From positions 83,898 through 147,897 of the forward strand of contig JBHIAH010000001.1 of assembly GCA_046758505.1 (NCBI GenBank): DNA of 64,000 nt, written 5' to 3'. Positions 33,450-34,352 of this stretch are shown in pieces. This DNA comes from Candidatus Methylomirabilales bacterium. Lineage in GTDB: Bacteria; Methylomirabilota; Methylomirabilia; Methylomirabilales; CSP1-5. The notes beneath the pieces were generated by a model that saw only the letters and a program-made list of their open reading frames with translations, made no database searches and had not been told where the DNA came from. The translations under genes and the position numbers were made by a program. The number at the start of each line of letters is the position of its first letter. Position 1 is the stretch's first letter.

Positions 33450-34352
33450 ATGCACTCCCTCCGCCAGATCCAGCCGGACTACTTCCTCCAGCGCTTTGTA
33501 TCGCCCCCCATGGCCTTTCAGCCTGGGCAGTTCGTCATGGTCAAGCCCTCGGGATCGCTCGATCCCTTCCTGCCAAGGGCCTATAGCATCCTGAGAGTCC
33601 AGCGCCACATGACGGGGAGGAGAGGGAAGCGGGAAGACGTGGTGGAGATCCTCTATAAGGTGTTGGGAAAGGGGACCACCGCGCTTTCGCGCCTCAAGCC
33701 CGGCGATCGGGTGGACCTGCTGGGCCCGCTGGGAAATGGCTATCGCGTGCCGCAGGACCTCACCACGGCCCTGCTGGTAGCGGGAGGAATCGGGGTGCCC
33801 CCGGTCGTCGCGCTCGCTGAACGGCTGGCCGGTTCACAGTTCCCGGTTCACAGTTCAGGGCAAGGAAAAGCTGGACTTCGGTCGTCGGTCGTCGGTCGTC
33901 CCAAAGTGGTGGCCTTTATCGGGGGCAAATCGTCGACCGATGTTTTGTGTCTCACCGACCTTCGAAAGGCAGGAGCCGCGCTTCAGGTGGCCACCGAAGA
34001 TGGCAGCCTCGGGCACCAGGGGCTTGTGACCGATCTCCTCGAATCGTATGTGCGGTCATCGGTCAACGGACTTCGGTTAACGGTTTATGCATGCGGTCCT
34101 CACGCGATGCTTCACGCCGTTGCTCGGATCGCCGAGCGATTCCAAATCCCCTGCCAGGTTTCCCTGGAGGCCCACATGGCGTGCGGCTTCGGGGCCTGTA
34201 TGGGGTGCGTTATACCAGTTCAGAGTTCAGAGTTGAGAGTTGAGAGTTCGAGACAAACTATGAACCGTGAACCGTCAACCATGAACCAGCGGAGCTATAA
34301 GTTGTGTTGTAAGGATGGGCCGGCCTTCGACGCCTCGGAGATTGTCTGGTGA
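33450..34352 (+). CDS. pyrK: Dihydroorotate dehydrogenase electron-transfer subunit, with three repeat-encoded insertions
   Basis: FQPGQFVMVKP, RAYSI, VYACGPHAML, and 2Fe-2S Cys cluster CGFGACMGC...CCKDGP. ATG 33450; GTG 33438 is an alternative. Confidence 0.8.
   Translation: MHSLRQIQPDYFLQRFVSPPMAFQPGQFVMVKPSGSLDPFLPRAYSILRVQRHMTGRRGKREDVVEILYKVLGKGTTALSRLKPGDRVDLLGPLGNGYRVPQDLTTALLVAGGIGVPPVVALAERLAGSQFPVHSSGQGKAGLRSSVVGRPKVVAFIGGKSSTDVLCLTDLRKAGAALQVATEDGSLGHQGLVTDLLESYVRSSVNGLRLTVYACGPHAMLHAVARIAERFQIPCQVSLEAHMACGFGACMGCVIPVQSSELRVESSRQTMNREPSTMNQRSYKLCCKDGPAFDASEIVW
33832..33900. repeat. GGTTCAC/AGTTCMS x2 plus CGGTCGT x3 arrays inside pyrK
   Basis: GGTTCAC AGTTCCC GGTTCAC AGTTCAG, an A-rich spacer, then CGGTCGT x3. 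In frame; encodes SQFPVHSSGQGKAGLRSSVVGR. Confidence 0.85.
34053..34087. repeat. CGGTCAT CGGTCAA CGGACTT CGGTTAA CGGTTTA array inside pyrK
   Basis: Five units in register, in frame (RSSVNGLRLTV), just before the conserved YACGP. Confidence 0.7.
34218..34286. repeat. Inverted heptamer arrays inside pyrK, between the Fe-S cysteines
   Basis: Left arm GTTCAGA x2, GTTGAGA x2, GTTCGAG. Right arm TATGAAC CGTGAAC CGTCAAC CATGAAC. Confidence 0.85.

Follow-up and report, generated by a model that had tools for sequence, protein, structure and literature searches.

Tandem heptanucleotide repeats have been known in cyanobacteria since 1990, and in several bacteria they later turned out to be the most common type of long simple repeat. 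The short tandemly repeated repetitive (STRR) sequences, reportedly described by Mazel in 1990, belong in the strict sense to heterocystous cyanobacteria and have the units CCCCAGT, TTGGTCA and CAACAGT. Rickettsia palindromic elements (RPEs), which are 100-150 bp in length and follow a family consensus throughout, are said to lie in frame inside protein-coding genes (Ogata, in 2000), and small dispersed repeats (SDRs) of 21-27 nt were reportedly found in Nostoc by Elhai in 2008. Here we analysed a 64,000-nt stretch of the genome of a Methylomirabilales (NC10) bacterium, hereafter the window, with the focus on a pair of heptamer arrays at 34218-34287 (site 2) in the frame of pyrK, the gene for the electron-transfer subunit of dihydroorotate dehydrogenase B (DHOD B). 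In our judgement, the pair is probably an STRR-like tandem heptanucleotide repeat, lying in a loop of PyrK that tolerates it and translated there, with homogenisation acting on its DNA and the reading frame serving as a filter.

Heptanucleotides are also in excess among the long simple sequence repeats (LSSRs) of some bacteria (Mrazek 2007, as far as reported in PMC4679880 and PMC4692102), and inverted arrangements of heptamer repeats occur in Xanthomonas as well (PMC4692102). Direct repeats of the heptamer TAACTGA are found in marine Beggiatoaceae, Cyanobacteria and Bacteroidetes (MacGregor 2015, PMC4679880), mostly just upstream of start codons; the orientation that carries stops in all frames is barred from open reading frames (ORFs), whereas the opposite orientation is tolerated at the protein periphery (PMC4679880). 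Repetitive extragenic palindromes (REPs) with their bacterial interspersed mosaic elements (BIMEs), and the REP doublets forming hairpins (REPINs), are fixed imperfect palindromes of ~20-35 nt mobilised by REP-associated tyrosine transposases (RAYTs; PMC3116915).

The array pair in the pyrK frame

The pyrK ORF spans 33225-34352 and likely starts at ATG 33450; in this frame, the region of site 2 reads PVQSSELRVESSRQTMNREPSTMNQRS. The relatives of the protein are dihydroorotate dehydrogenase electron transfer subunits of Candidatus Methylomirabilales, and we obtained matches to PDB 1EP1 chain B (PyrK; E 1e-22) and to PF10418, PF00175 and PF00970 in Pfam. As expected of the PyrK family, domains of the ferredoxin-reductase type that bind FAD and NAD precede a C-terminal 2Fe-2S domain containing four cysteines, and the gene adjoins pyrD in the pyrimidine operon, its stop codon overlapping the pyrD GTG at 34349. 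The site-2 arrays, both of which were called by Tandem Repeats Finder, lie between the third and the fourth cysteine of the cluster and consist of five units of the GTTCAGA/GTTGAGA type, a 7-nt spacer and four units of the NTGAACC type, the right arm being the reverse complement of the GGTTCAY unit family.

33450..34352, + strand: pyrK, DHOD B electron-transfer subunit, 300 aa, host of the arrays (from relatives' names, PDB and Pfam)
34218..34252, + strand: site-2 left arm, GTTCAGA (34218-24), GTTCAGA (34225-31), GTTGAGA (34232-38), GTTGAGA (34239-45) and GTTCGAG (34246-52), translated VQSSELRVESS
34253..34259, + strand: site-2 spacer or hairpin loop, ACAAACT (from sequence and fold)
34260..34287, + strand: site-2 right arm, ATGAACC (34260-66), GTGAACC (34267-73), GTCAACC (34274-80) and ATGAACC (34281-87), translated MNREPSTMN

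The comparison set consisted of 27 aligned PyrK proteins and the DNA of 36 close-relative loci. The flanking motifs CGFGACMGC and CCKDGP are kept across all 27 proteins. Because PF10418, the Fe-S domain, matched over profile positions 1-21 of 41 only, the insert splits this domain. Downstream of the arrays, the same frame holds the fourth cysteine of the cluster as well as the C-terminus YKLCCKDGPAFDASEIVW, which is conserved. In an AlphaFold2 model built on the 27-sequence alignment, the predicted local distance difference test score (pLDDT) stayed below 50 over residues 242-300, which comprise the whole C-terminal Fe-S domain including the insert; at such low confidence, the model does not show the insert to lie in a surface loop.

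A sequence-only reading of the window had given the sequence and the coordinates of the two arrays, which we found to be exact, and had placed them inside the translated part of pyrK. The latter held as well: besides the in-frame continuation, the frame is open across site 2 in 35 of the 36 close-relative loci, the exception being L105. A pyrK that ended before the arrays, or a split gene, is contradicted by the orthologues. More generally, the region could be untranslated, as a split gene, a removed intervening sequence or an artefact of assembly. Nothing beyond the oddness of the sequence speaks for this explanation, and it is confronted with the fourth cysteine ligand and the C-terminus in frame, with a site length that is always a multiple of three, with an in-phase unit that never bears a stop while out-of-phase units usually do, and with the recurrence of the same site in independent assemblies from many studies. 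We regard it as scarcely conceivable.

The same reading had further held that the two deviations from the repeat consensus fall exactly where the 7-nt period would collide with the frame. In the left arm, the second unit is in phase and reads TCA, as is the fifth, which reads TCG at codon 34248-50, and in the right arm the third unit is in phase and reads TCA, not TGA, at codon 34275-77; TCG and TCA occupy the spots at which GTTGAGA or GTGAACC would put a TGA in frame. In one sequence, this coincidence is not significant, with a chance of roughly 1/4 (right arm) times 3/10 (left arm) by our own counting. Across the orthologues, the right-arm part stood. Over unit positions 2-4 of 18 distinct GTTCA-family sites, uncorrected for shared ancestry, the in-phase third right-arm unit never contained a stop triplet (0/18; it reads TCA, TCG, GCA, CCG or TTA), whereas TGA or TAA was present in 44/54 out-of-phase units (Fisher p = 3e-10). 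The left-arm argument turned out to be weak, as GTTGAGA is confined to the window, L001 and L088, and the fifth unit is degenerate in every lineage; in most orthologues, the left-arm units are GTTCAGG or GTTCACA, which are stop-free in every frame and sometimes form four perfect copies.

As judged from the aligned sequences, stop avoidance in the right arm is real and general among the orthologues. A comparison of strains for stop-avoiding substitutions, which had been proposed, did recover TCA or a close variant in nearly all orthologues, but the TCA state at the in-phase unit is mostly inherited rather than adjusted in this genome. Likewise, the claim that the open frame is under selection is supported by the phase-specific absence of stops, but any intact essential gene forces a stop-free in-phase unit, and the stop pattern is therefore a consistency check and not a discovery. 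Taken alone, the stop-avoidance point is ordinary. That the arrays are translated and the open frame selected is supported. Among arrays in general (see below), the consensus unit carried a coding-strand stop in 7/53 genic arrays and in 29/82 intergenic array-strands (p = 0.005).

Evolution and homogenisation of the pyrK site

The orthologue alignment bore out the expectation that the insertion is lineage-specific. In relatives of ~45-50% identity, the third cysteine and the YKL(V/C)C motif are separated by a loop of 11-12 residues (AVPVRGPEPRY; VEVKADGKSY in P0097), whereas ten distinct sequences of a Methylomirabilis-like clade have 30 residues (90 nt) at the site; the insert, specific to this clade, adds ~57 nt (19 residues) to the ancestral loop. 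Site-2 variants of 96, 84, 69, 114, 120 and 141 nt also occur, and the PyrK length in the clade ranges from 255 to 346 aa. The 69-nt variant of L002 equals 90 minus 21 nt, with exactly three left-arm units gone, and the 114- and 120-nt variants contain an additional 24-nt insertion. The register of the units against the reading frame is identical in all GTTCA-family members. Three loci (L006, L095 and L097) carry another unit family at the site, (CAGTCAG/CCGTCAG)x2 followed by CTGACAG CGGACAG CCGACAG; here too, the arms complement each other and it is the in-phase unit that lacks TGA, and the L006 insert peptide KQSAVSSQPSAEDRIADSGQPTA is wholly unlike that of the GTTCA family. Short degenerate remnants were found in the deeper branches L008-L010. 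P0078 is devoid of the insert, P0065 of the left arm, and P0009 (encoded by L002, which is short by 21 nt) and P0018 of most of the left arm. As the losses in P0078 and P0065 show, the peptide is dispensable.

Further insertions were noticed in the relatives. Longer repeat-like PyrK insertions, RFDVAHRPEHVEGLTVEA..., occupy alignment columns 304-341 in P0041, P0048 and P0051, and TSASPRPEARPEGSVEP is nested in the site-2 left arm of L007 (L007:10736-10876). The 23-nt sequence ACTTCGGCGAGCTCAGTCGAGCC, read TSASSVEP, adds 24 nt in frame and recurs as exact copies in 10 NC10 loci, at or beside the pyrK array sites and the pyrD start; it interrupts the site-2 left arm in L088 and L093. No copy was found in the window, even with 3 mismatches allowed. 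It has the appearance of a tiny mobile element with the arrays as its target. Its copies are:

L001:10472-10494, L005:379-401, L006:6827-6849, L008:10962-10984, L088:3781-3803
L091:1383-1405 and 1421-1443, L093:2081-2103, L095:841-863, L097:2552-2574 and 2618-2640

Pairwise differences between the orthologues at the three codon positions were of the usual coding pattern in the two flanks (0.19/0.12/0.37 and 0.08/0.11/0.33). In the arms, the profile was flat (0.23/0.21/0.28 and 0.26/0.16/0.21), which points to constraint or renewal at the nucleotide and not the protein level. The spacer was the most divergent part (0.58/0.37/0.56), and mean pairwise identity was 50% in columns 38-51, which hold the fifth left-arm unit and the spacer, as against 76-79% in the arms. 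Within an array, the variable positions of the units were identical more often than in shuffles (0.61 vs 0.39, p < 1e-4), and some arms are uniform, as with the four GTTCACA-type units of L087, the three GGGTCAG units of L091 and the four GTTCAGG units of L004. Such high identity within arrays indicates homogenisation without change of length.

These data bear on whether the insert is a functional, lineage-specific loop of PyrK, acting for instance on the environment of the Fe-S cluster or on the PyrK-PyrD contact, with the periodicity as a relic of its origin. It is true that in many orthologues the YKLCC motif stands at a constant distance of 30 residues from the third cysteine, that the right-arm peptide MN(R/H)EPSTMN recurs and that the insert adjoins the cluster ligands. 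Nevertheless, the arms show no third-position excess, the units are homogenised at the DNA level, the other unit family encodes a completely different peptide at the same site, P0078, P0065, P0009 and P0018 are natural deletion derivatives, and the peptide is of low complexity in a region modelled with low confidence. A protein-level role of this kind is very unlikely.

In the STRR-like reading, site 2 would belong to a lineage-wide class of heptamer repeats of Methylomirabilales, commonly formed by two reverse-complementary arrays around a short spacer. The pair entered, or grew in, the loop between the third and fourth cysteines of PyrK in an ancestor of the Methylomirabilis-like clade and has been retained, usually at a length of 90 nt, and the ribosome reads through it, yielding ~19 extra residues that are of low complexity and dispensable. 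Its periodicity may be kept at the DNA level and not through selection on the peptide, by homogenisation within each arm (most likely slippage, realignment or short-patch conversion), and the two arms may correct each other by template switching between inverted repeats. Purifying selection on pyrK screens the array variants. As 7 is not a multiple of 3, only every third unit has the same phase, and on this arithmetic the filter acts in three ways: (i) changes of unit number other than by multiples of three units are lost, (ii) stop-bearing unit variants are admitted only in out-of-phase units, and (iii) the stop-bearing arm (NTGAACC) stays imperfect, while the stop-free arm (GTTCANN) can be perfect. 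The 21 nt missing from L002 and the broken frame of L105 (see below) accord with this filter. The TCA and TCG deviations are the footprint of this frame filter, and neither the peptide nor the hairpin needs to have a function.

Since each heptamer gained or lost shifts the frame, the arrays could alternatively be a contingency (phase-variation) locus that switches pyrK by frameshift. L105:1-900, on a metagenomic contig of 1.5 kb, is frameshifted exactly at both pyrK array sites: there are 14 additional nt (2 units) at site 1, described below, and 21 nt (3 units) plus 2 nt fewer at site 2, which amount to a net change of -9 nt. L105 could represent a pseudogene, a real product of slippage or an error of assembly in the repeats. 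On the other hand, pyrK has a housekeeping role in biosynthesis, its tracts are imperfect and no longer than 4-5 units, 10 diverged lineages agree in both unit number and register, 35/36 loci are in frame, and L105, the sole case of a frame-switching polymorphism in unit number among the relatives, is one short contig and maybe an assembly error or a pseudogene. We thus consider phase variation highly improbable.

Arrays in the window and along the pyr operon

The sequence-only reading had implied that the arrays are peculiar to pyrK. In fact, they are one case of a genome-wide class of repeats, which also lie in frame in pyrC, carA and pyrD. We detected 21 strict period-7 arrays in the window, none in shuffles and none with periods of 8-12. 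The density was 33 per 100 kb both in the window and in ten NC10 loci, ten times the value for 1.09 Mb from other phyla (3 per 100 kb). GGTTCACGGTTCAC alone has 21 copies in the window when up to 2 mismatches are allowed (0.45 expected). A catalogue of 103 arrays was compiled from the window and the 10 NC10 loci. In this catalogue, 72 arrays have the unit core GGTC/GTTC/AGTC (18% expected), arrays are ~8 times denser in non-coding than in coding DNA, and a partner array within 120 nt is reverse-complementary for 27 arrays and direct for 2. The inverted pairs fold into long hairpins (z -3.1 to -6.6). The arrays are thus head-to-tail units of 7 nt in at least three copies, more frequent than by chance, dispersed over at least 14 loci in the window and of few families (GGTTCAN, CGGTCRT, GTCCAAN and CAGCNGT were seen), as is characteristic of tandem heptanucleotide repeats.

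Some of the other arrays deserve mention. Five heptamer families (GCTGTCR, GACGACC, TGGCTGG, AATCACY and GTGAACC) stand back to back in ~170 nt of intergenic DNA at 51364-51535, and a comparable cluster at 44038-44196 has GGTTCAC, CAGCAGY and CTGATNG. At 11602-11622, (GGTTCAT)x3 holds the first ATGs of a menaquinone-biosynthesis gene on the - strand (PF02621, 10770-11615), read as ATGAACC ATGAACC, and the array may therefore supply the start codon. Outside NC10, a GGTTCAN-type array was seen in a metagenome-assembled genome of Phycisphaerae (L052:2352-2384). Searches with array-encoded peptides returned only ORFs of 43-82 aa without a Pfam domain (P0121-P0240, from Methylobacter, Flavobacteriales, Burkholderia and others); the databases contain thousands of such short 'proteins' of 46-74 aa, e.g. 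GSWFMVHGSWFMVH... and GSRFKVQGSRFKVQ..., which are evidently ORFs called over long arrays. This shows that GGTTCAN-type arrays are widespread, while peptide searches are silent on how arrays are distributed inside genes.

The operon around pyrK has a Bacillus-type order: a pyrR-like gene, pyrB, pyrC, carA, a tautomerase gene, carB, pyrK and pyrD. Five in-frame array sites were found in the window, all in this operon (pyrC, carA, pyrK twice and pyrD). The arrays of the operon and its surroundings, together with two features of its leader, are as follows:

25316-25344: promoter-like TTGACA-17-TAAATT, a motif upstream of the PyrR leader
25348..25459, + strand: PyrR-binding leader or attenuator, context and not repeat (RF00515 at E 1e-4 and 50.6 bits, just short of the gathering score, 54)
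26042..26133, + strand: intergenic inverted (GTTCATG)x4 ... (GTGAACC)x3-4, junction of the pyrR-like gene and pyrB (z -5.7)
27098..27178, + strand: intergenic inverted (GGTTCAN)x5 ... (NTGAACC)x3, junction of pyrB and pyrC (z -4.9)
27301..27329, + strand: perfect (GTTCAGG)x4 near the N-terminus of pyrC, in frame
29072..29161, + strand: inverted (GACCGNN)x4 ... (TCGGTCA)x4 in the carA linker, in frame (dG -48.5, z -6.6)
29845..29941, + strand: three adjacent arrays, CGGACAG, GCTGATY and TCGGTCR, in the gap from carA to the tautomerase gene upstream of carB
33829..33900, + strand: pyrK site 1, GGTTCAC/AGTTCCC units, A-rich spacer and (CGGTCGT)x3, in frame, SQFPVHSSGQGKAGLRSSVVGR
34371..34447, + strand: pyrD N-terminus, (GTTCACG)x4, spacer and (CGTCGGT)-type x5, in the pyrD frame
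35957..36063, + strand: intergenic inverted (GTCCAAN)x5 ... (TGGACTT)x4, between convergent genes downstream of pyrD (z -4.2)

The PyrR leader has a terminator hairpin with a U-tract and lies directly upstream of the pyrR-like gene (25458-26030). The array at the following junction ends 16 nt before the pyrB ATG. In pyrD, GTG 34349 is the sole canonical start upstream of the conserved N-terminus, and the Pfam DHO_dh match begins at residue 39. The arrays of pyrK site 1 are not mutually complementary and form no hairpin (z -0.66), with pLDDT <50 at residues 132-148. The array-bearing linker of carA separates the CPSase small-chain and GATase domains; in other genomes it carries heptamer arrays too (L004:5959-6042, L007:5790-5875, L010:1839-1876), with unit families that differ by genome (GACCGAC/GGTCATC, CCATGAG/CCCTCAG, GAGTCAG/CCCTCAC and CTCCCCC). 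These are two-armed in the window, L004 and L007, and hold their position although the sequence of the units is replaced. Two simpler roles of the arrays were rejected: as PyrR binding sites, since Rfam gives one PyrR leader (25348-25459) and nothing at the arrays, and as intrinsic terminators, since no terminator-like site coincides with an array and T-tracts are lacking.

The arms of site 2 form a hairpin of -21.5 kcal/mol (z = -3.1), and in two registers 71-75% of the cells are paired, compared with 22-42% in slid controls. Covariation in the two registers was, however, at shuffle level (179/500 and 364/500 shuffles were at least as high), so that a conserved RNA helix cannot be claimed. 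The pairing rests on the invariant GTTCA/TGAAC core, with mostly mismatched variable unit positions, and in L091 the left-arm units are now GGGTCAG with an unchanged right arm; the compensatory changes expected of a structured cis-regulatory RNA are thus not seen at site 2. In a 256-nt fold, the right arm (34260-34287) pairs with the perfect (GUUCACG)4 array at 34371-34399 in place of its left arm, so that the pyrK stop and the pyrD GTG (34349-34352) come to lie in a loop, albeit with a z of -0.9, no better than shuffles. The arrays at the pyrD N-terminus are not self-complementary (z +0.5). Rfam gave no match at the arrays. Taken together, an RNA-level role of the site-2 arrays is possible but not supported.

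It is still attractive to speculate that the arrays are functional elements of RNA, or of single-stranded DNA (ssDNA), of the polycistronic pyr mRNA, where stem-loops would tune decay, processing or the translation of the next cistron and the right arm would switch partners with (GGUUCAC)4. The hairpins are significantly stable; the inversion is kept despite a different unit family (site 2 in L006/L095/L097, the pyrB-pyrC junction in L008), with inverted partners outnumbering direct ones 27 to 2; and the arms are conserved irrespective of codon position and more slowly evolving than flanking synonymous sites, with a free spacer and a conserved site length. Moreover, in-gene arrays are concentrated in the pyr operon, arrays stand at nearly all junctions of this one PyrR-controlled operon, ending ~15 nt before starts, and in the 256-nt fold the right arm is paired to the pyrD-leader array, with the stop of pyrK and the start of pyrD in between. 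What speaks against such elements is the covariation at shuffle level in either register, the uncompensated left arm of L091, the loss of three left-arm units in L002, the arrays of pyrK site 1 and the pyrD N-terminus that are not self-complementary (z -0.7, +0.5), the shuffle-like z of the 256-nt fold and spacers that share no sequence between loci. We regard this explanation, the main rival of the STRR-like reading, as possible, but not probable. A more far-reaching version, namely that paired arrays are kept in and between the PyrR-controlled pyr cistrons as a repeat-based structural code of RNA or ssDNA, or as targets of a heptamer-reading protein or a complementary small RNA, is quite unlikely; the right arm could for instance form mutually exclusive helices, with the left arm or with the pyrD-leader array, that set translation or decay cistron by cistron. 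If true, such a code would be a new kind of regulatory element, maintained at the nucleotide level across codon positions in essential genes.

Several observations weigh against the STRR-like repeat reading that we prefer. That arrays within genes are concentrated in the pyr operon is not predicted by a purely selfish or neutral model: the window has five such sites in 4 of the 8 genes of the operon and none of the type in ~50 others, and 47 of the 53 genic arrays fall in the pyr operon, in a sample that is centred on pyrK and counts orthologous sites repeatedly. This genome was represented by the 64 kb of the window, and its relatives by loci centred on pyrK. Per 10 kb of coding DNA, the window and L001-L010 contained 6.4 genic arrays in the pyr operon (25350-35450) and 0.5 elsewhere, with the same bias towards pyrK. 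The cause could be local spread, permissive loops or function. In addition, the 90-nt site and its register are constant in lineages whose PyrK is only ~70-77% identical, and divergence is slower in the arms than at synonymous sites of the gene around them. Neutrality with a deletion bias would predict decay, and homogenisation or selection on nucleic-acid structure may explain the slow arms; the mechanism of length-neutral homogenisation is one that we infer.

Comparison with described repeats

We found no description of heptamer repeats in Methylomirabilis in the open-access literature. The occurrence of such repeats in NC10, the inverted pairs at orthologous in-frame enzyme sites across a clade and the pattern of nucleotide-level conservation appear to be undescribed so far. 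Heptamer repeats are hereby seen to be abundant in a second, unrelated lineage, that of the environmentally important NC10 nitrite-dependent methane oxidisers, and heptamer arrays can persist long in the frame of essential enzymes, in one case amid the very residues that bind an Fe-S cluster. With its flat profile, its homogenised units and its phase-specific stop filter, the locus is a natural experiment that parts the maintenance of a repeat at the DNA level from selection on the protein. There are practical effects as well: inflated protein lengths, split Pfam domains, spurious small ORFs and likely errors in metagenome assembly. Should the enrichment in the pyr operon be borne out over whole genomes, a function or a mechanism of local spreading would be indicated.

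Like REPs, the NC10 arrays are numerous short inverted repeats of intergenic DNA that form hairpins and stand at operon junctions. Unlike REPs, they have a tandem 7-nt periodicity and in-frame genic copies, and we found no shared palindrome as in REPs or REPINs: the spacers 26072-26107, 27137-27154 and 34253-34259 have neither length nor sequence in common. A mobile unit resembling REPINs or miniature inverted-repeat transposable elements (MITEs), which would have a conserved interior, was rejected because the spacers of the pairs are unrelated. With RPEs, pyrK site 2 and the carA linker have in common that hairpin-forming repeat DNA lies in frame in conserved proteins and yields a tolerated extra peptide; they differ from the RPE families in the organism, in the 70-nt size of the site, in sharing only the 7-nt unit with unrelated spacers, and in the internal periodicity. 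By analogy only, ACTTCGGCGAGCTCAGTCGAGCC may be said to behave like an SDR of Nostoc.

The NC10 arrays share the frame logic of the TAACTGA repeats. Nevertheless, TAACTGA is one unit sequence arranged as direct repeats, with one inverted case, and its occurrences in ORFs are at protein ends or in hypothetical proteins, whereas the NC10 arrays comprise several families with inverted pairs and, at pyrK site 2, stand amid a cofactor-binding motif of an essential enzyme. The likeness to STRR and LSSR is closer: units of 7 nt in tandem, short arrays of 3-10 copies, several families per genome, dispersal over many loci with the highest density between genes, and a proposed origin by slippage. The window unit TCGGTCA is a single base away from the STRR2 unit TTGGTCA. 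The host belongs to the NC10 phylum and the units are GGTTCAN, CGGTCRT, GTCCAAN and CAGCNGT, and for this reason we call the arrays STRR-like and not STRR. They further depart from STRR in their GC-rich genome, in the many arrays that lie in frame within conserved enzymes, in an in-gene site that is kept across a clade, and in the strong enrichment in the pyr operon.

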